Origin: an uncultured Bacteroidales bacterium
GTDB lineage: Bacteria; Bacteroidota; Bacteroidia; Bacteroidales; FEN-979
NCBI GenBank assembly: GCA_903925275.1
Contig: CAIYES010000095.1
Location: 11,225 to 75,224, forward strand
Reading direction: 5' to 3'
DNA length: 64,000 nucleotides
The first letter of the stretch is position 1, and every line of letters starts with the position of its first letter. Below the pieces are notes generated by a model that was not told where the DNA came from, made no database searches, and was given only the letters and a program-made list of their open reading frames with translations. The position numbers were made by a program, and so were the translations under genes. Below, in pieces: positions 6,239-63,139 of this stretch.

Positions 6239-6395
6239 TGACAAGTGACAAATGACAAGTGACAAATGACAAGTGACGAATGACATTTGGATGTCGAATT
6301 TATAAAGTAGTAATCAGGGTATCAAAACTATAATCGAAAATAGAAAAAGATAAGTTCACAGGTCACTTGTCATTTGTCATTCGTCATTTTTTTTA
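6239..6395. repeat. 7-bp tandem array (TGACAAG/TGACAAA, 7 units, 6239-6287) with an inverted partial copy (6362-6386) followed by a T8 run; possibly a long-loop terminator
   Basis: Read directly from the sequence. The reverse complement of 6362-6386 is TGACGAATGACAAATGACAAGTGAC, which can pair with the first array. TGA occurs in all three plus-strand frames. Confidence 0.9.
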
Positions 6396-34220: not shown

Positions 34221-35570
34221 TTAGAGACCAGCAGCGTTCAATGCTGCAATAGTATTGGTCATAAGAGCTGTTACGTAGGCGGTGTTATGAATACCAAGAC
34301 TGTACTCTCTTAAGCAGAATTGGAAATTGATAAGGGCTCCCACCTGAACATTCAATAATTTTGGGAATTTAGGTTGTGCACTACCACTCATTTTCCAATA
34401 TCCAGCAGGATTTGATGCTGCATCATAGATATCAAGGTACCCGTCATAATTGTTGGTGGTTAAACCCCACCAGAGATTTGCCGAGGAGGCTTCTCTGTGC
34501 AGAATGTCATGTCCACCGCCGGCTGCGTTAATTTTATCAGCCAGCTGATTCAGCAATGTTTGAACAGATGCTCTTGTATTGACCCATTTGGCGGAAGTTT
34601 TATCCAGTGGCTCATCAATATGACAGCCAGTAACATTACAACCGTTAAAATTCCAGGTAGTACCGGAGCCCAGGGCGGATTCTTTTGCGTTTCTTACGTT
34701 GAATGAGTGACCCCCGGCAATACCGGTCATTGGATTTGCCATATGGCAATCAACGCACGAAGCATGGGTGGTATGGTATGAATTGCTGTAAGCCATGGTC
34801 CCTGCAAATTCAATAGCACCAACTCCAGCATATACAGCTCCAACGGCACCATAATGAATGTGCATTCTGTAGGATGGTTTCACTCCGTGATTTGTCACAC
34901 CGGCAGTAGAATCATACTGAACAGTCAGGGGGAAGTTCTTCAGAGAGTCATAATTTAAAACTCTTCCAGACGCATCATAACCACATGTCAAAGGACGTGG
35001 CTGATGACATTTAGCGCATAAATTGCCGCTTCCGCTATCGGCGGGCAGATCAATCGTTTTAGCTCCGGCCCACATGGTCATAGAAATAGGGGCTGTGGTG
35101 GTAAGTGCAATATCTGATGCACCATATGTCGTATGTAAACTGCTGTGGCAGGTCCAGCAACCGATTTCACCAAATGTGCTGGCAGCGTCGGGAAAATATT
35201 GGTTTACCCATTTTCCTCCAGTAAAAAGAAAAGCAGAGGAAGTATTGTTTTGGCATACATAAACAAATGCTTTTTGTTCATGGCAAGGAGTACAGGCAGT
35301 ATTTCCTGCTTCTTCGAATGCTGTCGCACCCCATGAGTGTTTTGCCATTTGAAATTCCACTGCAATCCTGTCAACCATCGTGGCAGTATGACATATTTTG
35401 CAGGTTTCATTGGCATCTTTACCATTTGTTCCGTTTATTCCGTTTGTTCCGTCTTTACCATTAATACCAGCGACTCCCTGGGGGCCTTCTTTGGTACAGG
35501 CAGTGAATAAAAAAGCCGCAGCCGCGATCATCAATCCGGCAGCAAAAAATAATTTGTGTAAATTTTTCAT
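34221..35570 (-). CDS. Multiheme c-type cytochrome lipoprotein with an N-terminal collagen-like (GXY)8 segment
   Basis: Start at MKNLHKLFF (ATG at 35570), lipobox LFTAC, then GPQGVAGINGKDGTNGINGTNGKD. Five CxxCH motifs (CKICH, CTPCH, CWTCH, CAKCH, CVDCH) plus one CxxxxCH (CNVTGCH). Confidence 0.85.
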   Translation of the reverse strand: MKNLHKLFFAAGLMIAAAAFLFTACTKEGPQGVAGINGKDGTNGINGTNGKDANETCKICHTATMVDRIAVEFQMAKHSWGATAFEEAGNTACTPCHEQKAFVYVCQNNTSSAFLFTGGKWVNQYFPDAASTFGEIGCWTCHSSLHTTYGASDIALTTTAPISMTMWAGAKTIDLPADSGSGNLCAKCHQPRPLTCGYDASGRVLNYDSLKNFPLTVQYDSTAGVTNHGVKPSYRMHIHYGAVGAVYAGVGAIEFAGTMAYSNSYHTTHASCVDCHMANPMTGIAGGHSFNVRNAKESALGSGTTWNFNGCNVTGCHIDEPLDKTSAKWVNTRASVQTLLNQLADKINAAGGGHDILHREASSANLWWGLTTNNYDGYLDIYDAASNPAGYWKMSGSAQPKFPKLLNVQVGALINFQFCLREYSLGIHNTAYVTALMTNTIAALNAAGL

Positions 35571-36635: not shown

Positions 36636-37631
36636 TCAACCTCCGGCCAATCCATTGGCGTATAAATAGGTTGCAATCTGTACAGCATTGGTGGCTGCAC
36701 CTTTCCGGAGATTATCTGCAACAATGAAGAGATTCAGGGAGTTGGGCTGTGATTCGTCACGTCGAATCCTGCCGACGAATACCTCGTCTTTGCCCTTGGC
36801 CCCGATCGGCATCGGGTAAATGTTATTTTTAATATCATCCTGAACGATTATTCCGGGTGCAGCGCCAAGCAGGGCAAAAATGTCGCGGATTTCATAATCC
36901 CGGCAAAATTCCAGGTTAATGGCTTCGGAATGACCGCCCAGAACAGGAACCCTGACAATCGTGGCCGTAATCCTGATTGAATAATCATCAAGAATTTTTT
37001 GGGTTTCGTTTACCAGTTTCATCTCTTCTGAGGTATAACCATTTTCCTGAAAAACACCTCCATGAGGAAACAGGTTCAGATCGATCGGGTATGGATATGC
37101 CATTTCTCCCATAATACCCTTGCGTTCATTTTCGAGCTGTTGTATGGCTTTTGCTCCCGTTCCGGTTACCGACTGATAAGTTGACGCAACGATGCGTTTG
37201 ATTCCATATTTCGCATGAAGTGGCGCCATAACGAGTACCAATTGAATTGTTGAGCAATTGGGATTGGCGATGATCTTGTGATCTTTAGTCAGAATTGAAG
37301 CGTTTATTTCAGGGACAATTAAAGGAATTGACTGATCCATACGCCAGGCGGAGGAATTATCTATAACCGTTATTCCTGCAGCAGCATAGCGGGGAGCCCA
37401 TTCCCTTGATGCAGCAGCGCCGGCAGAAAAGATTGCAATGTCGGGCTTTGCTCCAATTGCCTGTTCGTGGGTGTGAATAAAATAACTGTTGTGGTTGAAA
37501 GTAAGTGGAAGCCCTGCTGATTTCATTGAAGCGACAGGGATGAATAATTCGGGATAAAGCTTATGTTCATCAAGAACTTTAAGAATCTCGCGTCCCACCA
37601 AACCTGTAACACCGACAATTGCCAGCTTCAT
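36636..37631 (-). CDS. asd: Aspartate-semialdehyde dehydrogenase
   Basis: MKLAIVGVTGLVGRE Rossmann start and active-site block IANPNCSTI. The ORF-track extension to 38015 merely reads through tandem repeats. Confidence 0.9.
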   Translation of the reverse strand: MKLAIVGVTGLVGREILKVLDEHKLYPELFIPVASMKSAGLPLTFNHNSYFIHTHEQAIGAKPDIAIFSAGAAASREWAPRYAAAGITVIDNSSAWRMDQSIPLIVPEINASILTKDHKIIANPNCSTIQLVLVMAPLHAKYGIKRIVASTYQSVTGTGAKAIQQLENERKGIMGEMAYPYPIDLNLFPHGGVFQENGYTSEEMKLVNETQKILDDYSIRITATIVRVPVLGGHSEAINLEFCRDYEIRDIFALLGAAPGIIVQDDIKNNIYPMPIGAKGKDEVFVGRIRRDESQPNSLNLFIVADNLRKGAATNAVQIATYLYANGLAGG

Positions 37632-37661
37632 GTTGTATTTTTTGGCAAAGGTACAGGAAAA

Positions 37662-37782
37662 ATGGTGAAATGGTGAAATGGTGAAATGGTGAAATGGTGA
37701 GATGGTGAGATGGTGAGATGGTGAAATGGTGAAATGGTGAGATGGTGAAATGGTGAAATGGTGAGATGGTGAAATGGTGAAA
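37662..37782. repeat. 8-bp tandem array, 15 units (ATGGTGAA / ATGGTGAG), in the asd / LTD-protein divergent intergenic region
   Basis: Counted directly. Unit order is a a a a g g g a a g a a g a a. The array ends 30 nt from the asd ATG. Confidence 0.95.
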
Positions 37783-37871
37783 AAAATCCGGAATGGGAAG
37801 ATTGGCGGGGAGTTTTTATCAACACAGGTATTACTTTTCGGTAATTTCCGGATTAAGCAGAAAAACCGCAT

Positions 37872-40508
37872 ATGAAAACTTTTTATTCCAGCATTGTCAA
37901 TATTGTCTGCATTGCCTGCATTGTCTGCATTTCCTGCATTGTCTGCATTTCCAGCATTTCCCAGGCCCAGGTGACGGATGATTTTTCGGATGGAAATTTT
38001 TCCAGGAACCCGCAATGGCTAGGGGATACCATGCAGTTTGAGGTCAATACGGCCGGCCAGCTTCATTTAAAAGGTCAAAGCAGCGATACATCCCTATTAA
38101 TGACAAGAAGTGAATCCAGCTCAACCACTGAATGGCGTTTTTGGATAAAATTATCGTTCAACACCTCCTCAAATAATTATGCACGAATCTATCTCGCGTC
38201 AGACACTATAAATGTATTTTCCGCGATGAATGGCTATTTTCTTCAGACGGGTGGTGGGGATGACAGCATCTTTATCATAAAACAGTCGGGCATGGTTCAG
38301 GAAAAGATATACCGTGTTCAATTTTATAAAACGTTTCATTCAACAAATACGTTTCGGATGAAAATCACACGTGATGAAGCAGGGGGCTGGGAGGTAATGA
38401 TTGATACAACCGGGGGATTTAATTATTATCAGGACGGTAGGTTTTCAGACAATTCACTCTTTCCGGCACGATGGATTGGCGTTTGTTGCCGCTATACATC
38501 CAGTAATGCAACGAAATTTTATTTTGATGATTTTTATATAGGGCCGATCATTTATGATACCATTGCACCTTCAGTTATCTCTCAGGAATTTCAGGCAGAG
38601 AAAGTTATTAGGGTTGCTTTCTCAGAGACGATAGAAAGAAGAAACGCAGAGACTCCTGAGAATTATCAACTCGGCCCGGATGTCGGATCTCCTGATTCTG
38701 TCATTATGGATGTGCAGGAGCCTGCCGTAGCTTTGTTTCTTCATGAACCAATGAAAGAAGGCATTTATGGTTCATTGCATATTCAGGGGGTTACTGATTT
38801 GGCTGGAAACCTGATGAAAGATACCGTGGTTCCGGTATGCTGGTATCGGCCGAAAGTTTTTGACATCCTTATACATGAGATCATGGCAGACCCGGATCCT
38901 CCTGTTGAATTGCCGGATGGTGAATTTGTAGAGTTGTTTAACCGCACAGATTTCCCAATAAATCTAAAGGGTTGGAGCTTCAGTTATGGAAGCTATATCA
39001 AGATATTCCCCTCAACGGTCATTTCACCAAAGGGATATTTGCTAATTGTAAAAGATTCATCCTATTTAAGTTACGCAGTATGTGCGGTTTTATTCACATC
39101 TTCCACTTCCTTATCAAATGAAGGAACTGCCCTGATACTGAAAGATCAGTGGAATCATGTTATTCACACTGTTTCATACACCCCGGAATGGTACAAAGGT
39201 TTATTTAAAGGAGAAGGCGGATGGTCGCTGGAGATGATAGATCCGGGAAATCCATGTGGTTGTGGAGAAAACTGGGGCGCATCGCAGGCAAAATCCGGAG
39301 GAACACCCGGGAGTCCAAATTCTATTGGCAAATCCAACCCTGATCTGAAAAGTCCGGTTCCCATGAGAGCCGTGATATCTGATTCGTCATCCTTGGAAGT
39401 TTACTTTTCAGAAGCAATGGACAGCACTTCATTGCTTTCACCGGCAGGCTGGATTATAGGTTCCCCGGATGGGGCGATCCACCCCGTTAGGGCTGAACCG
39501 GTTTCTCCCGGGTTTATTTCAACAAAACTATTGTTCAGCAAAGCTTTTGAACCAGGGATATCTTACACGCTCAATGTTTCGGGTGATTTTAAAGATTGTA
39601 CGGGTAACTATTGCGACACTACCCGAACAGTCAGGTTTGCGATTCCGGATTCCGTGACCCTTCATGACATCGTCATCAACGAAATTTTATCCAATCCAGC
39701 CAGTGGAGGAGCAAGATTTGTTGAGTTAATCAACCGTTCAGAAAAAATTATTGATCTGCAAACCCTGGTATTGGCGAACCGTGACACTGTAACTGGATTT
39801 CTTCCGGGTTCAACACCGCTTTTCCCTTCCGGATATTTATTGTTCCCCGGAGATTATATCGCGCTGACTTCAAGCTCTGATGAAATCCGGGACCGGTATC
39901 ATTCACCTTTCCCGGAAGCCATCGTTTCGATGCAGGGATTTCCAGTGTTCGGAGACGACACAGGAACTGTGATCCTAGCCAGAAAAGATAATTTAATGGT
40001 CATTGACAGGATTCACTATGATCCGGATATGCATTATCCATTGCTGGCAACTTCAGAAGGAGTGTCGTTGGAGCGGACCAATCCGGACATGCCCTCCGAA
40101 AGCAAAGACAATTGGCATTCGTGTGCTGAAACGGCAGGATTTGCTACTCCTGGTTTCATAAATTCGCACTTTGTCATTCATGAAACAACGGATAGGGAAA
40201 TTGTTATCGAACCGTGTGTTTTTTCACCCGACAATGATGGGCATGATGATTTATTGTCCATCATCGTCCGTGAAAATGACCCAGACTGTACGGTCAGCAT
40301 TGAAATTTATGATTCGAAAGGACGAATAATCAACCAATTAGTCAATAACGTGTTAACTGGCAGCGAGGGAATTTTCATCTGGGATGGGATGACCTCTAAC
40401 AAGAACAAGGCACCGCTTGGCTTTTATGTTTTCCTGATTGAAATAACAAGGCCGGATGGTACGGTGAAGCACTATAAAGGGACTGCCGTGCTGGGGGGAA
40501 GACTCTGA
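37872..40508 (+). CDS. Secreted protein with two lamin-tail domains (LTD) and a C-terminal beta-sandwich carrying an FSPDNDGHDD motif
   Basis: LTD signatures HEIMADPDPPVELPDGEFVELFN...LKGW and NEILSNPASGGARFVELIN. The signal peptide ends SQAQ. The C-terminal FSPDNDG motif resembles T9SS type-B/FlgD-Ig-like domains. Confidence 0.7.
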   Translation: MKTFYSSIVNIVCIACIVCISCIVCISSISQAQVTDDFSDGNFSRNPQWLGDTMQFEVNTAGQLHLKGQSSDTSLLMTRSESSSTTEWRFWIKLSFNTSSNNYARIYLASDTINVFSAMNGYFLQTGGGDDSIFIIKQSGMVQEKIYRVQFYKTFHSTNTFRMKITRDEAGGWEVMIDTTGGFNYYQDGRFSDNSLFPARWIGVCCRYTSSNATKFYFDDFYIGPIIYDTIAPSVISQEFQAEKVIRVAFSETIERRNAETPENYQLGPDVGSPDSVIMDVQEPAVALFLHEPMKEGIYGSLHIQGVTDLAGNLMKDTVVPVCWYRPKVFDILIHEIMADPDPPVELPDGEFVELFNRTDFPINLKGWSFSYGSYIKIFPSTVISPKGYLLIVKDSSYLSYAVCAVLFTSSTSLSNEGTALILKDQWNHVIHTVSYTPEWYKGLFKGEGGWSLEMIDPGNPCGCGENWGASQAKSGGTPGSPNSIGKSNPDLKSPVPMRAVISDSSSLEVYFSEAMDSTSLLSPAGWIIGSPDGAIHPVRAEPVSPGFISTKLLFSKAFEPGISYTLNVSGDFKDCTGNYCDTTRTVRFAIPDSVTLHDIVINEILSNPASGGARFVELINRSEKIIDLQTLVLANRDTVTGFLPGSTPLFPSGYLLFPGDYIALTSSSDEIRDRYHSPFPEAIVSMQGFPVFGDDTGTVILARKDNLMVIDRIHYDPDMHYPLLATSEGVSLERTNPDMPSESKDNWHSCAETAGFATPGFINSHFVIHETTDREIVIEPCVFSPDNDGHDDLLSIIVRENDPDCTVSIEIYDSKGRIINQLVNNVLTGSEGIFIWDGMTSNKNKAPLGFYVFLIEITRPDGTVKHYKGTAVLGGRL
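37891..37962. repeat. 9-bp tandem array, about 8 units (GCATTGTCT / GCATTGCCT / GCATTTCCT), inside the signal-peptide coding region of the LTD protein
   Basis: Counted directly. It translates in frame as IVNIVCIACIVCISCIVCISSIS. ATTGCCTGC is the reverse complement of the GCAGGCAAT unit at 62958-63083. Confidence 0.9.
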
Positions 40509-42963: not shown

Positions 42964-42996
42964 TGAAATGGTGAAATAGTGAAATGGTGAAATGGT
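42962..42996. repeat. Short 8-bp array (about 4 units of TGGTGAAA-type) between the ABC ATPase stop and the rnr start
   Basis: Sequence aatgaaatggtgaaatagtgaaatggtgaaatgg, the same unit family as 37662-37782. Confidence 0.8.
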
Positions 42997-45699: not shown

Positions 45700-48600
45700 A
45701 TGAGAACAATTTTCAGGCTTTTTGTAGTGCTTGGATTTATTTTTGCTATTCCAGGTCTTTCTGTTTTCAGTCAGGTTAGCATCAAAACCGATGGCAGTCC
45801 ATGCGACCCTTCAGCCATGCTGGATGTGAATGCAAAAGACCGGGGGTTACTCCTCCCGCGTATGTCGGTTGCTGCACGCAACCTGATTCTATCTCCCGCA
45901 ACCGGCCTGCTAATCTACAATACGACTTCGAACCAATTCAATTATTACAATGGCAGTCACTGGTTCCAGTTGGAAACAACCTTTATCATTTTAAAAACCG
46001 CAGGAAGCCCAAGCACAGGCAGCAACGGTGTTGCCATTGGCACTTCACTGGGAACACAGGCGGAAAGTACGGCGATGCTCGACATCAATGATCCGGCCAG
46101 GGGTATGCTGATCCCGAGAATTTCAACCTCAGCCCGCGACCTTATCCCATCGCCTGCCAATGGTTTGATCATTTACAACACATCTTCAAATCTCCTCAAT
46201 TATTACAACAATACCCGTTGGGTTACCGTGTGTGCCAGTTCAACGGGGATAACGGGTGCCAGCGGAAGCCAGGCCTCCGTCGGGATAGCTATCAAATCAG
46301 ACAATTCAAACGCGGATCCATCCGCAATACTGGATGTATCGGCTACCGACAAGGGGGTGCTGATCCCACGACTTACGAATGCCCAGCGTGATGCTATTCT
46401 TCCTGTTACCGGACTGGTCATCTATAATACCATAACCAACAATATTGAATTTTACAATGGCTCAGGCTGGTACCAGTTTGTCACAAACCTGCTCTCATCC
46501 CCATTGGCCGGTATACATGTGCCAACCGGAACAGAGATCACCTGGAACTGGAACAGCGTTGCCGGTGCCATCGGTTATAAATGGAATACGGTCGATGATT
46601 ACACAACGGCGACCGACTTGGCTGCCGTCACCACGAAGACCGAAACAGGTCTCATCCCCATCACAGCCTATTCGAGATATGTATGGGCCTACAACAGTTG
46701 CGGGGTATCGGCAGCGACCACGCTGACACAGTCGACCACAGCCTGGGCGTGCGGCTCTTCATTCACCATTGATCATGTAGCCGGCGATGTGGCACCTGTC
46801 ACAAAAACCGTTACCTACGGTACAGTTCCGAATATTGCGGGTAGTCCTGAAAAATGCTGGATTACCAGAAACCTGGGTGCCGACCAGCAGCCAACGGCCG
46901 TTGATGACGCATCCGAAGCATCGGCAGGCTGGTACTGGCAGTTTAACCGGAAACAGGGTAACAAGGTTGATCAGGATGGCTTCACCCGCAAGCCCGCTGC
47001 CACCTGGACCACGAATATTCTTGAAAGCACTTTCTGGGAGGCCGCCAACGACCCCTGCACCCATGCTCTTGGCAGCGGGTGGCGCATTCCTACTTATACG
47101 GAATGGAACTCAGTAGTAGCGCTCTTTCCAAACCATCTTAATCCATGGATATCTGATTTGAAGCTGCATGCAGCCGGTCGTCTCATCGTAGCCGATGGTT
47201 CACTATTCCAACGAGGTCTCTTCGGTGAATACTGGTGCAGCAATGGTGACGGTCCTTTAATCCCCCCCCCAGGTGTAAATACGAGCATGACCCTCTTCTT
47301 CATCGCTGGAATTATCGAAGCGGGTTTTGGGGTTAACTTTAATGCAACCGGGGAGTCGATGCGCTGCCTCAGAGATGAAGCAAGTTTCACCACTACCCCC
47401 ACCCTCACCACAACGGCTGCCGGCAATATTACTACGACAACGGCAACCGCTGGCGGCAATGTCCTCAGCGAAGGAGGGGTAGCAGGAATTGTAAAGGGTG
47501 TATGCTGGAGCACTTCACCTTTGCCCACCATTGCCGACAACCACACGACCGACGGCAGCGGAACCGGTGTGTTTACAAGCAATTTCAGCGGCCTCACGGC
47601 GAATACCCTTTATTATGCAAGGGCTTATGCTACCAATGGTTCCGGAACCGCTTACGGGAATGAGGTAAGTTTCAGGACCTTCTTCACCTGCGGTACTTCC
47701 ATCACAGTTAACCATGTTGCGGGCGATGTGGCGCCGGTTAATAAAACCGTTACCTACGGCACCGTTGCAAACATTCCCGGCGAACCAGCAAAATGCTGGA
47801 TCACCCGTAATCTGGGCGCCGACCAACAGGCTGCCGTTGATGACGATAACACCTCTGCCGCTGCAGGCTGGTACTGGCAGTTTAACCGCAAACAGGGGTA
47901 CCAGGTTGATATGAACGGGGCCAGAACACCCAATACCAGCTGGATAACCTCAATAAATGAAAACAGTGACTGGGAGGCTGCCAAGGATCCCTGTACCCTT
48001 GAACTTGGCGCTGGCTGGCGTATCCCGGCCATGTCGGAACTGGAGAACCTGGATGCAGGCGGAGCCTGGACCAATGAGAGTTTTCCTTGGAATTCCGGGT
48101 TAAAACTGCATGAAGCCGGGATCATACATGAAAATGATATGTTATTCAACCGCGGAAAGACAGGCTTTTACTGGAGCAATACACAGAACGGCGCTTCAAA
48201 GGGATGGAACCTGTTCTCCGGCGTTGGAACATGTTCCATTGAATCCAACACCAAAGTCAGTGGTATGTCGCTGCGCTGCCTCAACGATGGCGGTGCTACC
48301 ACAACCACACCTGCTGTTACAACGTTGGTTGCCAGCAATATTGCTGCTACTGCAACAACAGGCGGGGGCTATGTTTACAGTGACGGCGGAACTGCTGTAA
48401 CTTCCCGTGGAATTTGCTGGAGTAACGTACCAAATCCTACTTTGGCAAACAGCCATTCAACCAACGGCAGTGGTTCGGGTTTGTTTACTGGCAGCCTCGC
48501 CGGTCTCACACCGAATACCCTGTATTATGTATGTGCATATGCTACCAATGGTAACGGCACTGCCTATGGAAATGAAATAACTGTGACAACCACTACCAGC

Positions 48601-51600
48601 TCAACCTGCGGTACTTCCATTACCATCAATCATATAGCAGGAACCGTAGCGCCGGTGACAAAAACAGTTACTTACGGAACTGTTACAAACATACCCGGTG
48701 AACCGGCAAAATGCTGGATTACCAGCAACCTCGGGGCGGACCACCAGGCTTTGGCAATAGATGATGCCACTGAAGCCGCGGCAGGCTGGTACTGGCAGTT
48801 TAACCGCAAACAAGGGTACAAGCATGATGGAACAACCAGAACACCCCATACCGATTGGGATGAATGGATTTTTGAAAACTTTGACTGGCAGTTTGCCAAC
48901 GATCCCTGTGCCCATGAGATAGGCAGTGACTGGCGTATTCCAACGTATACCGAATGGAATAATGTTGCTGCTGGTGGAAACTGGGTAGACTGGAATGGCC
49001 CGTGGAATTCCGGTTTAAAACTCCATGCAGCAGGTTACCTGTATACTTTCAATGGTGACGGGCTGCACAACCGGGGCGAACTTGAAGATTACTGGAGCAG
49101 TTCACAGGACCCCATCTACCAAGGATGGCACCTGTTTTACCCGGGCAGTATCCAGGGCATGCCCGACGGTGGGGTGTATCATGACGGTAAAAGTTTCGGA
49201 TATCCGCTTCGTTGCATCAAAGATTCGCCCAATCCGCTCATTCCAACAGTAACAACAGCCATTGTGACGGACATCACTTCAAACACCGCCTCAGGTGGAG
49301 GAAACGTCGCTTCCGATGGAGGGGCGCTGGTAACCGCAAAAGGGGTGTGCTGGAGCACCTCGTCAAATCCTACTACTGCCAGCAGTCATACGACAGATGC
49401 CAGCCTCACAGGAGTGTTTTCAAGCAGTCTCACCGGCCTTATACAGAATACGCTATATTATGTTAGGGCATATGCAACCAACAGTGCGGGCACGGCTTAC
49501 GGAACCGGGGTGACATTTACCACCCTGAATTCTGTTCCTCCAACGGTTCTTACAACTGCCGTGACCTCCATCGCTCAAACCACCGCCACCGGCGGAGGAA
49601 ATGTCACCGCCGATGGCGGAGCACCGGTTACAGATCGTGGTGTATGCTGGAGCGCCGCATCAAATCCAACCATCCCCGGGAACAGCCATACCAATGATGG
49701 CAGCGGTACCGGAGTGTTCACCAGCAGTCTCACAGGCCTCACAGCGAATACCCTGTACCACACAAGGGCCTATGCGACCAACAATGCAGGAACGGCTTAT
49801 GGACTGGATTTGACCTTTACCACCCTGCCAAATCCGGTTATTCCAACAGTAACCACAACAGCAGCAACAGTTATAGCTCAAACCACCGCGACCAGCGGAG
49901 GAAATGTCACCGCCAATGGCGGAGCACCGGTTACAAATCGTGGCGTATGCTGGAGCACCGCATCAAATCCAACCATCCCCGGGAACAGTCATACCAACGA
50001 TGGCGGTGGCACCGGAGTGTTCATCAGCAGTCTCACAGGTCTCGCTGCGAATACCCTCTATCATGTCAGAGCGTATTCAACAAACAGCGCGGGTACTGCT
50101 TATGGGACAGACCTGACGTTCACCACATTAAACGGGGTTCTTCCATCGGTAACTACAACATCGGTTACAGAAATCACCAAGACGACTGCCACCGGAGGAG
50201 GGAATGTACTTTCTGACGGCGAAGTTACGGTCACGGCCCGTGGCATATGCTGGAGTACATCATCCCCACCTTTGGTCACGAATTATCATACGACCGATGG
50301 CGGCGGAACCGGGGCATTCACAAGCAGCCTCACCGGCCTGGCCCAGAACACCCGGTATTATGTAAGGGCTTATGCAACAAACAGTATCGGTACCGCTTAC
50401 GGGAATGTAGTAGATTTTTTAACACTCAATCCCTGTCCCGGAATTGAAACCATCACCATAAACCATGTTTCAGGTAATGTATCTCCGGAAAATAAAACCG
50501 TTACCTATGGAACTGTCATGGGTATCCCCGGAGAACCTTCAAAATGCTGGATTACCAGTAACCTGGGCGCCGACCACCAGGCAACCGCTGTTAATGATGC
50601 CACAGAACCTTCGGCAGGATGGTACTGGCAGTTCAACCGGAAGCAGGGATACAAAAACGCCGGATCAACCGTACCGGCATGGACGACAACCTATGTCAAT
50701 GAAAATCTGAACTGGGAGGCTGCCAATGACCCGTGTTTCGTTGAACTTGGTGCCGGCTGGCGTATTCCTACCTCCAGTGAATTGGGTAATGTAAGCGGAA
50801 GCTGGACCAACTGGAACGGTCCATGGAATTCAGGTTTAAAGCTCCATGCTGCCGGGTTCCTGTTCAGCAATGGTTCACTGCAAGCCCGTGGTTCCTATGG
50901 CAATTACTGGAGCAGTGAGCAGTTCGGCAATACCAATGGCTGGTACCTGAATTTTACCAGCACAACCGTCAACCCGGGCATCGTTTCAAAAGCTTACGGC
51001 ATGTCGATCCGCTGCCTGATGGATGCCACGGCCACGGTAACAACAACCGTGGTTACCAATATTGCCTCAACTACCGCCATCTCAGGCGGTAATGTTGTGA
51101 ACGAAGGCTTATCTGCCGTTACTGTCAGGGGTGTTTGCTGGAGCACTACAACATCTCCCACCATCTACGGTAATAATACTGCTGATGGTAGCGGAACCGG
51201 TGTTTTTGTGAGCAACCTGGCCGGTCTTACGCCGAATACATTGTATTATTTAAGGGCCTATGCGACGAACAGTGCCGGAACGGCATATGGGAATGAAGTC
51301 AGTTTCACAACTTCCGCTGTATTTCTCTGCGGATCCTCCCTAACCATCAACCATCTGATATCAGGAGGTGTTGCTCCTGTTGATAAATCAGTAACCTATG
51401 GCACCGTGACTAATTTACCCGGCGAACCTTCAAAATGCTGGATCACAAGTAACCTGGGGGCAAGTCAGCAATCGACCGCCGTGGATGACAATACCGAGGC
51501 TTCTGCCGGCTGGTACTGGCAATTCAACCGGATGCAGGGATACATGAATGATGGTTCAACCTATCCGTCGTGGACGATAACCAGCATCAGTGAAAATGCC

Positions 51601-51930
51601 AACTGGGAACCCGCCAACGACCCGTGTGTCATTGAACTTGGCGCAGGTTGGAGGATACCTACATTTACCGAATGGGACAATGTGAATACATGGGGCGGCT
51701 GGGCAAACTGGGACGATGCCTGGGCCTCTGAGCTCAAACTGCATGCGGCCGGGAACCTTGCTTATTGGTACGGTGGGATATTCTACAACCGGGGTTCACA
51801 GGGCTTATACTGGAGCAGCACGCAGAATGACGATATTACCGGCTATTACCTGTTCCTCTTTTCGGGATATACCACCATGAGTACAATTGAAAAGGCATCC
51901 GGCTGCCCGGTGCGCTGCCTTAAAGAGTAA
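45700..51930 (+). CDS. Giant modular cell-surface protein: 3 N-terminal ~55-aa repeats, 5 Fib_succ_major-like domains and about 10 Fn3-like modules
   Basis: Signal peptide. Repeats (A/S)xLD(V/I)...G(L/M/V)L(L/I)PR...YN(T)...YYNG..W occur 3 times. Modules H(V/I)AG.VAPV.KTVTYGTV...KCWIT.NLGA...GWRIPT..EW...YWSS...RCL occur 5 times. Modules GGNV..DGG..VT.RGVCWS...NTLYY.RAYATN.AGTAYG occur about 10 times. Confidence 0.85.
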   Translation: MRTIFRLFVVLGFIFAIPGLSVFSQVSIKTDGSPCDPSAMLDVNAKDRGLLLPRMSVAARNLILSPATGLLIYNTTSNQFNYYNGSHWFQLETTFIILKTAGSPSTGSNGVAIGTSLGTQAESTAMLDINDPARGMLIPRISTSARDLIPSPANGLIIYNTSSNLLNYYNNTRWVTVCASSTGITGASGSQASVGIAIKSDNSNADPSAILDVSATDKGVLIPRLTNAQRDAILPVTGLVIYNTITNNIEFYNGSGWYQFVTNLLSSPLAGIHVPTGTEITWNWNSVAGAIGYKWNTVDDYTTATDLAAVTTKTETGLIPITAYSRYVWAYNSCGVSAATTLTQSTTAWACGSSFTIDHVAGDVAPVTKTVTYGTVPNIAGSPEKCWITRNLGADQQPTAVDDASEASAGWYWQFNRKQGNKVDQDGFTRKPAATWTTNILESTFWEAANDPCTHALGSGWRIPTYTEWNSVVALFPNHLNPWISDLKLHAAGRLIVADGSLFQRGLFGEYWCSNGDGPLIPPPGVNTSMTLFFIAGIIEAGFGVNFNATGESMRCLRDEASFTTTPTLTTTAAGNITTTTATAGGNVLSEGGVAGIVKGVCWSTSPLPTIADNHTTDGSGTGVFTSNFSGLTANTLYYARAYATNGSGTAYGNEVSFRTFFTCGTSITVNHVAGDVAPVNKTVTYGTVANIPGEPAKCWITRNLGADQQAAVDDDNTSAAAGWYWQFNRKQGYQVDMNGARTPNTSWITSINENSDWEAAKDPCTLELGAGWRIPAMSELENLDAGGAWTNESFPWNSGLKLHEAGIIHENDMLFNRGKTGFYWSNTQNGASKGWNLFSGVGTCSIESNTKVSGMSLRCLNDGGATTTTPAVTTLVASNIAATATTGGGYVYSDGGTAVTSRGICWSNVPNPTLANSHSTNGSGSGLFTGSLAGLTPNTLYYVCAYATNGNGTAYGNEITVTTTTSSTCGTSITINHIAGTVAPVTKTVTYGTVTNIPGEPAKCWITSNLGADHQALAIDDATEAAAGWYWQFNRKQGYKHDGTTRTPHTDWDEWIFENFDWQFANDPCAHEIGSDWRIPTYTEWNNVAAGGNWVDWNGPWNSGLKLHAAGYLYTFNGDGLHNRGELEDYWSSSQDPIYQGWHLFYPGSIQGMPDGGVYHDGKSFGYPLRCIKDSPNPLIPTVTTAIVTDITSNTASGGGNVASDGGALVTAKGVCWSTSSNPTTASSHTTDASLTGVFSSSLTGLIQNTLYYVRAYATNSAGTAYGTGVTFTTLNSVPPTVLTTAVTSIAQTTATGGGNVTADGGAPVTDRGVCWSAASNPTIPGNSHTNDGSGTGVFTSSLTGLTANTLYHTRAYATNNAGTAYGLDLTFTTLPNPVIPTVTTTAATVIAQTTATSGGNVTANGGAPVTNRGVCWSTASNPTIPGNSHTNDGGGTGVFISSLTGLAANTLYHVRAYSTNSAGTAYGTDLTFTTLNGVLPSVTTTSVTEITKTTATGGGNVLSDGEVTVTARGICWSTSSPPLVTNYHTTDGGGTGAFTSSLTGLAQNTRYYVRAYATNSIGTAYGNVVDFLTLNPCPGIETITINHVSGNVSPENKTVTYGTVMGIPGEPSKCWITSNLGADHQATAVNDATEPSAGWYWQFNRKQGYKNAGSTVPAWTTTYVNENLNWEAANDPCFVELGAGWRIPTSSELGNVSGSWTNWNGPWNSGLKLHAAGFLFSNGSLQARGSYGNYWSSEQFGNTNGWYLNFTSTTVNPGIVSKAYGMSIRCLMDATATVTTTVVTNIASTTAISGGNVVNEGLSAVTVRGVCWSTTTSPTIYGNNTADGSGTGVFVSNLAGLTPNTLYYLRAYATNSAGTAYGNEVSFTTSAVFLCGSSLTINHLISGGVAPVDKSVTYGTVTNLPGEPSKCWITSNLGASQQSTAVDDNTEASAGWYWQFNRMQGYMNDGSTYPSWTITSISENANWEPANDPCVIELGAGWRIPTFTEWDNVNTWGGWANWDDAWASELKLHAAGNLAYWYGGIFYNRGSQGLYWSSTQNDDITGYYLFLFSGYTTMSTIEKASGCPVRCLKE

Positions 51931-62245: not shown

Positions 62246-62958
62246 ACATCCGGTGTTTAATAATCGATGATGAACCGCTTGCACAGCGTGTCATTGAAAA
62301 GTATACTGAGAATATTCCGTTTCTCGAGATCGTCGGGAAATGCAGCAATGCGGTTGAAGCCATTGAAGTGCTGCATAACCGGGAGGTTGATCTTTTATTC
62401 CTGGATATCAACATGCCAAGGCTTAATGGCATGGACTTTCTTAAAACCCTGAAAAACCCGCCATTGGTCATCATTACCACGGCCTATGCTGAATATGCCA
62501 TCCAGGGGTATGAGCTTGATGTAGTTGATTATCTGATGAAACCGTTTGCTTTTGACCGGTTTTACAAGGCCATCCAGAAAGTCGAAGAGATGATAAAAGG
62601 GAGGGAAATACCCCAAACCGAAGCCAAAGAGGCAACCAGACAGGAAGAGACCTTCATTTTTGTCAAATCAAGTAAAAAAACCTATAAGGTCAACCTGGAT
62701 GAAATCCTTTACATTGAAGCTTTGGGAGATTATGTAAAGATATACACCACAGAGAAAATGATTATCAGCTACCAGTCGCTGAAGAATATTGAATCACTCC
62801 TGCCGGCCTCCTCTTTCCCGCGGATTCATAAATCATTTATCATAGCCTTGTCGCGTATTGATCTGATCGAGGGGAATCACGTAAAGATCAAAGACCGGCA
62901 GATTCCGATCGGCACTAATTTTAAATCTGAATTTGAGAGGCTTATTAAATCTATTTAA
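62242..62958 (+). CDS. LytTR-family response regulator
   Basis: Receiver domain (IIDDEP, DLLFLDINMP, KPF) plus LytTR domain (ILYIEALGDYVKIYT, RIHKSF). It overlaps the kinase stop by 4 nt. Confidence 0.9.
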   Translation: MNIRCLIIDDEPLAQRVIEKYTENIPFLEIVGKCSNAVEAIEVLHNREVDLLFLDINMPRLNGMDFLKTLKNPPLVIITTAYAEYAIQGYELDVVDYLMKPFAFDRFYKAIQKVEEMIKGREIPQTEAKEATRQEETFIFVKSSKKTYKVNLDEILYIEALGDYVKIYTTEKMIISYQSLKNIESLLPASSFPRIHKSFIIALSRIDLIEGNHVKIKDRQIPIGTNFKSEFERLIKSI

Positions 62959-63083
62959 TGCAGGCCATGCAAACAATGCAGGCAATGCAGGCAATGCAAA
63001 CAATGCAGGCAATGCAAACAATGCAGGCAATGCAGGCAATGCAAACAATGCAGGCAATGCAAACAATGCAGGCAATGCAGGCA
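62958..63083. repeat. 9-bp tandem array, 14 units (ATGCAGGCA / ATGCAAACA), beginning at the response-regulator stop codon (TAATG)
   Basis: Counted directly. Higher-order 45-nt periodicity (units A G G A G). It is open on the plus strand as MQAMQTMQAMQA...I, with the stop at 63087-63089. Confidence 0.95.
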
Positions 63084-63111
63084 ATTTAAATTATGCAGGA
63101 ATGTATTAATT

Positions 63112-63139
63112 ATTGCCTATTGCCTACTGCCTACTGCCT
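63112..63139. repeat. 7-bp tandem array, 4 units (ATTGCCT / ACTGCCT), partly complementary to the preceding 9-mer array
   Basis: Read directly. The reverse complement AGGCAAT is contained in the GCAGGCAAT unit. Confidence 0.85.

Follow-up and report, generated by a model that had tools for sequence, protein, structure and literature searches.

An In-Frame 9-bp Tandem Repeat Provides the Hydrophobic Core of a Predicted Signal Peptide in Uncultured Freshwater Bacteroidales

The stretch of DNA analyzed in this study, referred to here as the window, comprises 64,000 nucleotides of a contig (CAIYES010000095.1) from an uncultured Bacteroidales bacterium, and carries a gene for an 878-amino acid (aa) secreted protein with a lamin-tail domain (the LTD gene, 37872..40508, forward strand). 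The entire hydrophobic core of the predicted signal peptide of this protein is provided by a 9-bp tandem array of eight in-frame units (37890..37961, forward strand), the consensus of which, TGC-ATT-GYY, encodes Cys-Ile-Val/Ala/Ser. The array is probably an in-frame minisatellite belonging to a family of short tandem repeats found throughout the lineage, tolerated in a core where only hydrophobicity matters and kept within bounds by selection. The relatives with which the window was compared are metagenome assemblies throughout.

The Signal Peptide and Its Tandem Array

The array makes up codons 7-30 of the LTD gene with the pattern nnC-ATT-nYC, and its eight units read, in order, AGC ATT GTC, AAT ATT GTC, TGC ATT GCC, TGC ATT GTC, TGC ATT TCC, TGC ATT GTC, TGC ATT TCC and AGC ATT TCC. 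Tandem Repeats Finder reported a period of 9 at 37891-37949 (6.6 copies) and a period of 18 at 37902-37958 (94% matches), with scores of 76-93, and the pattern (TGCATTNNN)2TGCATT (TGCATTNNNTGCATTNNNTGCATT) has 13 matches in the window vs none in 100 dinucleotide-preserving shuffles. The array therefore has the unit size (5-11 nt) and the greater-than-chance length of a dispersed short-repeat family, and the first-pass annotation, which had described the hydrophobic core as the translation of about eight repeat units, is borne out in all particulars by these results.

The domains of the LTD protein, identified with Pfam, are the lamin-tail LTD (2.9e-24), an Ig-like Big_5 (6.4e-07) and a C-terminal CHU_C (1.6e-07), every one of which exceeds its curated cut-off. 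CHU_C (PF13585; 31.8 bits at residues 783-861, with a threshold of 27) is a sorting domain of the type IX secretion system and is present in the orthologs too. As cargo of type IX secretion, the protein would first have to cross the inner membrane through Sec, and an N-terminal signal peptide is therefore expected.

The N-terminus of the protein, MKTFYSSIVNIVCIACIVCISCIVCISSISQAQV / MKTFYSSIVNIVCIACIVCISCIVCISSISQAQVTDDFSDGNF, has the layout of a Sec/signal peptidase I signal peptide when the sequence is inspected. The predicted 32-aa peptide (37872..37967, forward strand) consists of an n-region (MKTFYSS, with K2), a hydrophobic h-region (IVNIVCIACIVCISCIVCISSI) of ∼16-20 apolar residues, which is at the upper end of the ortholog range, and a c-region (SQA, residues S30-Q31-A32), followed by Q33 and then V-T-DDFSDGNF. 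Approximately 100 orthologs (among 120 listed) could be aligned on the motif Q..[DE].F.DG; in these the MKT.. start is kept, the Gln is present in all, and the hydrophobic N-terminus is followed by Q-[VIL]-x-D-D-F-S-D-G-N-F with A/G/S at -1. In Bacteroidetes, signal peptidase I substrates tend to carry Gln at +1, the so-called Q-rule (PMC5837995). Because the ortholog context (A-x-A|Q-V-x-DDFSDGNF) fits this rule, signal peptidase I most likely cleaves after Ser-Gln-Ala, which would expose Gln33. The earlier assignment of a signal peptide to a secreted protein thus agrees with both the CHU_C domain and the conserved N-terminal context.

The ATG at 37872 is the sole ATG preceding Met54, an in-frame TAA (37854-37856) lies six codons 5' of it, and the only other start codon is a GTG at codon 34, the use of which would delete the signal peptide. 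Met54 is located inside the conserved mature domain, in keeping with the earlier statement that there is no alternative Met before that domain.

Unit Number Among Orthologs and Close Relatives

A protein search returned more than 5000 homologs, the best of them 90% identical, with at least 55 near-full-length orthologs among those listed. According to a genome scan, the hosts of this family are uncultured, mostly freshwater Bacteroidales metagenome-assembled genomes, and species-representative genomes all show ≤64% identity. An N-terminus with the Cys-Ile-x periodicity, varying in unit number, was found in more than 40 orthologs at 55-90% identity. The lengths of these signal peptides are quantized, at 20 (9 cases), 23 (9), 26 (13), 29 (8), 32 (2), 35, 38 and 44 aa, so that a rule of 17+3n fits 44 of 46 orthologs over the range of 20-44 aa, and the reading frame is open and in register through the array in all 46.

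Nearly all distant orthologs carry a plain 17-aa signal peptide, for example MKKICLICLLFPLVATA. In a rough neighbor-joining tree of the mature proteins, the repeat-type peptides fall in one large clade, within which three 17-aa groups are nested, suggesting more than one loss or gain of the array. Among the 17-aa forms, P0004 is nearest to the group of the window. In L202 the 17-aa form is coded as ATT TGC TTG ATT TGC CTG, a two-unit 9-bp proto-repeat (ATTTGCTTG ATTTGCCTG), and degenerate arrays are found in P0028, P0030-32 and P0038-43.

Public gene calls of many orthologs (in the clusters of P0027, P0021 and P0022) begin at V34, M54 or an internal Met-Gly. These starts, which clip the signal peptide, are an annotation artifact.

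Whole units are also gained or lost between close strains. The genes of L004 and L206 (873 aa, six units) are 99.4-99.85% identical to those of L204 and L205 (870 aa, five units), with identical sequence for 150 bp upstream, and the sole indel is one TGCATTTCC unit; in a protein collection, both forms likewise occur among members from separate samples (five of 870 aa, two of 873 aa). The genes of the window and L081 (91.8% identity) differ by a single indel, which is 9 bp long and falls in the array (eight vs seven units), and P0018 and P0175, from one 90% cluster, are of equal length with different internal units. At 72 bp, the coding array lies well within read length. A change of three residues per unit with the frame intact had been anticipated from the window alone, and this is what is seen; the orthologs do carry the repeat and its unit number varies, as opposed to conventional signal peptides and a locus without length polymorphism.

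A difference in unit number was found in only one of ∼15 clusters (≥90% identity, two or more full-length members), whereas in the other ∼13 the length is constant, and one cluster of 36 members is identical. As changes of unit number occur in few clusters, the array is dynamic, but not hypermutable. Compared with phase-variable repeats of the opa type, it shares the difference in unit number between close strains (five vs six units, in that one cluster), but not a unit length indivisible by three.

The Repeat-Rich Genomic Background

The window holds eight arrays with 7-9-bp units in its 64 kb, and repeat units recur at several unlinked places in it. Apart from the two 5' arrays of the LTD gene, arrays of 6-9-bp units have a density of 0.73 per 10 kb in array-bearing genomes vs 0.08 in close relatives with 17-aa peptides (∼9-fold; Mann-Whitney p = 0.02). 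Since array density is higher in the repeat-type genomes, the signal peptide array appears to go with a genome-wide propensity; for the genome of the window itself, the enrichment is judged on its 64 kb.

The 9-bp unit of the signal peptide also forms a non-coding array of ∼14-16 copies (TGCATTGCC/TGCATTGTT; 62957..63103, reverse strand). This array is flanked by convergent genes, one of which encodes a LytTR response regulator, and it begins at the stop codon of that gene. Next to it lies (TGCCTAC)x3.7 (63114-63139), with 4 bp left between its end and the stop codon of the other gene, LysE; the intergenic space between these two genes consists of repeats throughout.

Matches to (TGCATTNNN)3TGCATT in a metagenome scan were, among those listed, a heterogeneous mix, mostly non-coding, with some on eukaryote-like or very AT-rich contigs and many of them unrelated TGCATTNNN arrays. 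Among the matches listed, TGCATTGYY arrays in contigs of lineage-like composition were all non-coding, several of them ending ..GCATTAAA. One such contig, SESG01000057.1, is the putative contig of ortholog P0036, which has a 17-aa signal peptide. None of the 87 metagenome arrays listed was at the 5' end of a long open reading frame (ORF), and no LTD gene was among them, while in 1.4 Mb of related loci, arrays of at least three units were found solely at the 5' end of the LTD gene. A 48-aa query of Cys-Ile-Val (CIV) repeats against a set of 5.8 billion proteins gave nothing scorable, and for other protein families the negative result applies to the 1.4 Mb of loci.

A further array lies upstream of the LTD gene. 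The divergent neighbor of the LTD gene is asd (aspartate-semialdehyde dehydrogenase, identified through Pfam Semialdhyde_dh/dhC; 36636..37631, reverse strand), and synteny of this neighborhood is kept in relatives. Most of the intergenic region between the two is occupied by an 8-bp array of 15.4 copies (AAATGGTG/AGATGGTG; site A, 37660..37782, forward strand), with the asd ATG 28 bp away and the LTD ATG 90 bp downstream. Most repeat-type genomes have an array at site A, at distances of 29-40 bp (asd ATG) and 61-92 bp (LTD ATG), with units that vary by genome (AAATGGTG, AAATAGCG, GGACAAGC, ACAGGCGG, GTGGGCGA and others). Copy number also differs, at 15.4 in the window vs 4.4 in the 92% identical L081, although the count for this 123-bp array may be less reliable than that for the coding array. 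A second 8-bp array, (TGAAATGG)x4.1 (site B, 42964-42996), lies directly after the TAA of an ABC ATPase gene and upstream of an RNase R gene. In the window, L002 and L068, sites A and B have one and the same unit, and in L004 the two units are approximately alike. The unit common to the two sites within a genome differs between genomes in four of six cases.

Taken as a minisatellite, the TGCATTGYY array would belong to a family of 7-9-bp repeats spread through the intergenic regions of an uncultured freshwater Bacteroidales lineage, and one copy would have landed in, or grown from a two-unit proto-repeat within, the h-region of the Sec signal peptide of a type IX cargo. It would survive within the gene because its period is a multiple of three and its frame yields hydrophobic Cys-Ile-(Val/Ala/Ser/Phe). 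Replication slippage, we infer, adds and removes whole units, which would give rise to signal peptide lengths of 17+3n, and selection for export would limit the usable hydrophobic stretch to ∼14-20 residues, either through removal of long arrays or through fixation of substitutions to polar, charged or proline residues in N-proximal units.

Conservation of the Unit as DNA

The unit is conserved not only as peptide, but also at synonymous positions. Codon counts were pooled over the signal peptides of 18 lineages (19 for Val/Ala) and compared with the rest of the same genes by Fisher test, the units inside one array not being independent of each other. Cys is encoded as TGC in 67 of 73 signal peptide positions (92%) vs 81 of 160 in the gene remainder (p = 2e-10), Ile as ATT in 104 of 114 (91%) vs 353 of 891 (p = 2e-27), and Val/Ala codons end in a pyrimidine in 81 of 88 (92%) vs 1071 of 2026 (p = 8e-15). 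In conventional 17-aa signal peptides the ratio of TGC to TGT is 5:5. Across lineages the consensus of the unit is T-G-C-A-T-T-[G/T]-Y-Y, and CATT is kept even in units that code for Asp, Asn, Arg or Tyr, as in L068 (CIDCINCIDC) and L010 (IVRIVCIVRIVC). The cysteine-rich core, described as unusual in the first-pass annotation, is real as far as its composition goes, but it does not appear to be a designed property of the peptide, as the Cys richness stems from the DNA unit TGCATTGYY, which is also found in non-coding arrays.

Such uniform codon usage among 18 lineages, with protein identities of 55-65%, exceeds what homogenization by slippage within each lineage predicts. This weighs against a tolerated minisatellite as the full account, since slippage alone fails to account for TGC/ATT/GYY at synonymous sites that would be expected to be saturated. 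An extra force acting at the DNA level is needed, for which preferential amplification of the motif, conversion from other arrays and a binding factor are candidates; alternatively, the retention of near-perfect arrays over such divergence could reflect positive selection for mutability. The tree adds to these difficulties, because the placing of the 17-aa lineages within the repeat clade is rough, and the change may have been repeated loss or repeated gain.

The strongest alternative follows from this conservation, namely that repeated TGCATTGYY acts as a site in DNA or RNA: a sequence-specific factor would bind it, or a process specific for its sequence, such as preferential copying of units, would produce or propagate it. 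The coding array would be kept for this reason, the encoded peptide would be no more than compatible with it, and the array in the signal peptide would be a captured member of the system. We regard this as unlikely, though somewhat less so than the other alternatives considered. In its favor, all three wobble positions are frozen across the 18 lineages, the units of L068 and L010 that code for D, N or R in a supposedly hydrophobic region nonetheless keep CATT, the unit occurs with the common end ..GCATTAAA in intergenic arrays of the window and related genomes, and the 8-bp arrays at the two conserved sites match within, but not between, genomes. Structure in the RNA offers no help to this explanation, as the 5' coding region near the start codon has, if anything, less structure than its shuffled controls (z = +1.2), and no pairing of the upstream 8-bp array with the signal peptide array was supported (z = -0.3). 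The confinement of arrays of at least three units to the LTD gene in the related loci also argues against it, as does the toleration of degenerate arrays and of complete loss; preferential slippage of an already homogeneous motif could yield the same pattern without a factor, and the binding factor remains hypothetical, with no candidate found. If true, sequence-specific upkeep would offer one cause for the frozen synonymous sites, the unlinked non-coding arrays and the genome-specific 8-bp units, and changes of length could have consequences for whether a type IX cargo is exported or stays in the membrane.

Unit Number and Export

The first-pass annotation had proposed that slippage of the array could act as a rheostat for export efficiency. 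As an adaptive contingency locus, the array would be selected to vary in unit number, tuning either the efficiency of export or the targeting route (signal recognition particle vs SecA, or a cleaved vs an anchored protein), and the hypervariable 8-bp array on the promoter side may act alongside it. Such a role is conceivable, given that unit number varies between strains and species, that the array persists across many species, that it is joined at a single surface-protein gene by an upstream array of variable copy number (15.4 vs 4.4 in L081), and that leader-peptide repeats control expression in opa (PMC3960869). By a crude sum on a biological hydrophobicity scale, peptides with at least three pure CIV units also become transmembrane-like, whereas the 17-aa signal peptides of the family and the other signal peptides of the window do not.

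The data on the peptides themselves do not favor tuning. Across the 46 orthologs, longer signal peptides do not have a longer maximal run without D, E, K, R, N, Q, H or P (slope -0.10, Spearman rho -0.17, p = 0.26, mean ∼16). In the longest peptides (44, 38 and 32 aa), the N-proximal units include Arg, Asp, Asn, Tyr or Pro, so that 14-15 apolar residues remain. As the apolar stretch is flat over lengths of 20-44 aa, long pure arrays seem to be disfavored, not exploited, which points to buffering and not to tuning; this is the pattern expected from purifying selection on a functional h-region, and we infer that such selection caps its length. Furthermore, the variability described above, with one variable cluster and 36 identical members in another, is far below that of classical contingency loci, several lineages keep the gene with a plain 17-aa signal peptide, and both the non-coding TGCATTGYY arrays and the genome-wide richness in repeats speak against a rheostat. 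A role in tuning export is therefore not favored and seems improbable, somewhat more so than maintenance by a sequence-specific process.

It is very improbable that the start is mis-annotated, with the repeat untranslated, or that the protein is a lipoprotein cut by signal peptidase II at a lipobox Cys: although V34 or M54 is taken as the ortholog start by some gene callers (clusters 2, 4 and 6) and the units hold [AS]-C dipeptides, the frame is open in every ortholog with lengths differing by multiples of three only, a type IX cargo needs a Sec signal, DDFSDGNF is conserved as protein upstream of M54, the invariant A/G/S at -1 followed by Gln is the Q-rule pattern of signal peptidase I, and the -3 position of every [AS]-C is Cys and not L/V/I, so that there is no canonical lipobox ([LVI][ASTVI][GAS]C), nor do the orthologs share a conserved one.

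Neighboring Features and Other Repeats

Between the site A array and the LTD start codon lies a non-repetitive segment (37783..37871, forward strand) with a box TTTTTATCAACA..GGTATTACTTTT, which relatives share in a by-eye comparison of the window with L081, L203, L004 and L202, and likely to contain the LTD promoter and 5' leader. The promoters of Bacteroidota differ in type from those of sigma-70. On the other side, a TAnnTTTG-like box of asd (37646-37653) adjoins the 8-bp array, its sequence being kept as CAAAGGTA or CAAAGATA in L004, L081 and L203.

In relatives, further arrays lie downstream of the LTD gene. An (AAAATGC)n array begins within 8 bp after the LTD stop in L002, L003, L004, L006, L008, L204 and L206 (site C). 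A (GCATTTT)-like array, inverted relative to the first, is found after the stop codon of a convergent phosphoribosyltransferase gene (site D). The two flank a 45-aa ORF (L204, 12621-12653 and 12832-12861), and the window has neither of them. In addition, the ABC ATPase gene call extends into a tandem array, giving 591 vs 557 aa (L204 13629-15404, L003 13930-15642, L068 13475-15187), suggesting that arrays can be absorbed as C-terminal extensions too.

Two inverted heptamer arrays, (TGACAAA)x6.7 at 6239-6285 and (GTCATTT)x4 at 6362-6389, are located in the gap that separates the purH stop from the mreB start. They are predicted to form a stem of ∼20 bp followed by a U-run (minimum free energy -48 kcal/mol, z = -5.5, equaled by none of 200 shuffles), which looks like an intrinsic terminator made of tandem repeats. 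A 9-bp coding repeat (35425-35452) in the ORF at 34221-35570 (reverse strand) encodes a short Gly-x-y (collagen-like) run, GPQGVAGINGKDGTNGI, directly after a lipoprotein-like N-terminus in a protein with weak matches to multihaem cytochromes, and several relatives have a 9-bp repeat at the equivalent position.

The other secreted proteins of the window have ordinary signal peptides. One of these is encoded by a 2076-aa ORF (45700-51930; ..SVFS|QV) with a G+C content of 51-53% vs ∼41-45% around it. This high-GC stretch at 46-52 kb was considered as possible rRNA, which was ruled out, as the Rfam matches are two tRNAs only and the stretch is the 2076-aa ORF.

Comparison With Known Systems and Significance

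In Neisseria, the opa genes carry CTCTT coding repeats in the region of the leader peptide, in which slipped-strand mispairing alters the number of units; the 5-bp unit shifts the frame, causing on/off switching at ∼1e-3 per generation (PMC3960869). The LTD array is similar in being a short tandem repeat in the 5' coding region for the hydrophobic leader of an outer-surface protein (PMC3960869), but its unit is 9 bp, the frame stays intact, only peptide length changes, and polymorphism between close strains is modest. By analogy, the opa leader repeat is the nearest named precedent.

Long simple sequence repeats are a known but sporadic phenomenon (PMC4679880, which cites Mrazek et al. 2007). 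Restricted to certain lineages, they are dispersed as arrays of 5-11-nt units that lie mainly between genes, frequently right next to a start or stop codon. Those found in coding regions have units that are multiples of three, and intragenic copies lie at protein ends; dispersed heptamer arrays such as TAACTGA occur in Beggiatoaceae, Cyanobacteria and a few Bacteroidetes (PMC4679880). The arrays of the LTD lineage resemble these in being dispersed and of short unit, with an in-gene copy that has a multiple-of-three unit at the periphery of the protein, and differ in their units (TGCATTGYY, AAATGGTG, GGACAAGC and AAAATGC) and in a freshwater Bacteroidales host that is absent from the lineages described. 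The LTD array forms a whole signal peptide core conserved across dozens of species, for which no counterpart is reported in that work (PMC4679880).

A literature search for a bacterial signal peptide core made of an in-frame variable repeat found no precedent. The signal peptide of human APOB has a 9-bp (Leu-Ala-Leu) insertion/deletion polymorphism, with two or three alleles. The likeness lies in the in-frame 9-bp indel within the hydrophobic core and the resulting three-residue difference between alleles; APOB differs in being eukaryotic, without an extended array, and outside any genome-wide repeat family. For the 8-bp array at site A, a comparison can be made with hmw1A/hmw2A of Haemophilus influenzae, in which 7-bp promoter repeats have a demonstrated graded effect on expression. 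Both are variable short repeats upstream of a gene for an adhesin-like surface protein, but the site A array lies upstream of the likely promoter boxes and adjoins the divergent asd promoter.

The most interesting loose end is the freeze of the unit at the DNA level: synonymous sites that stay constant for longer than neutral drift allows point to an unexplained force acting on short repeats in an uncultured lineage. Even if the array is merely tolerated junk, it calls for caution with gene callers, several of which clipped the signal peptide, and with predictors faced with Cys-rich periodic cores. The orthologs also constitute a natural series, in which one signal peptide is extended by 1 to 9 three-residue units on an otherwise conserved protein, and which may serve as a test bed for the effects of h-region length and composition on Sec targeting, on processing by signal peptidase I and on transfer to the type IX system in Bacteroidota. 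More broadly, the LTD gene suggests that a repeat-prone genome can remodel a functional targeting signal while leaving its function unbroken.

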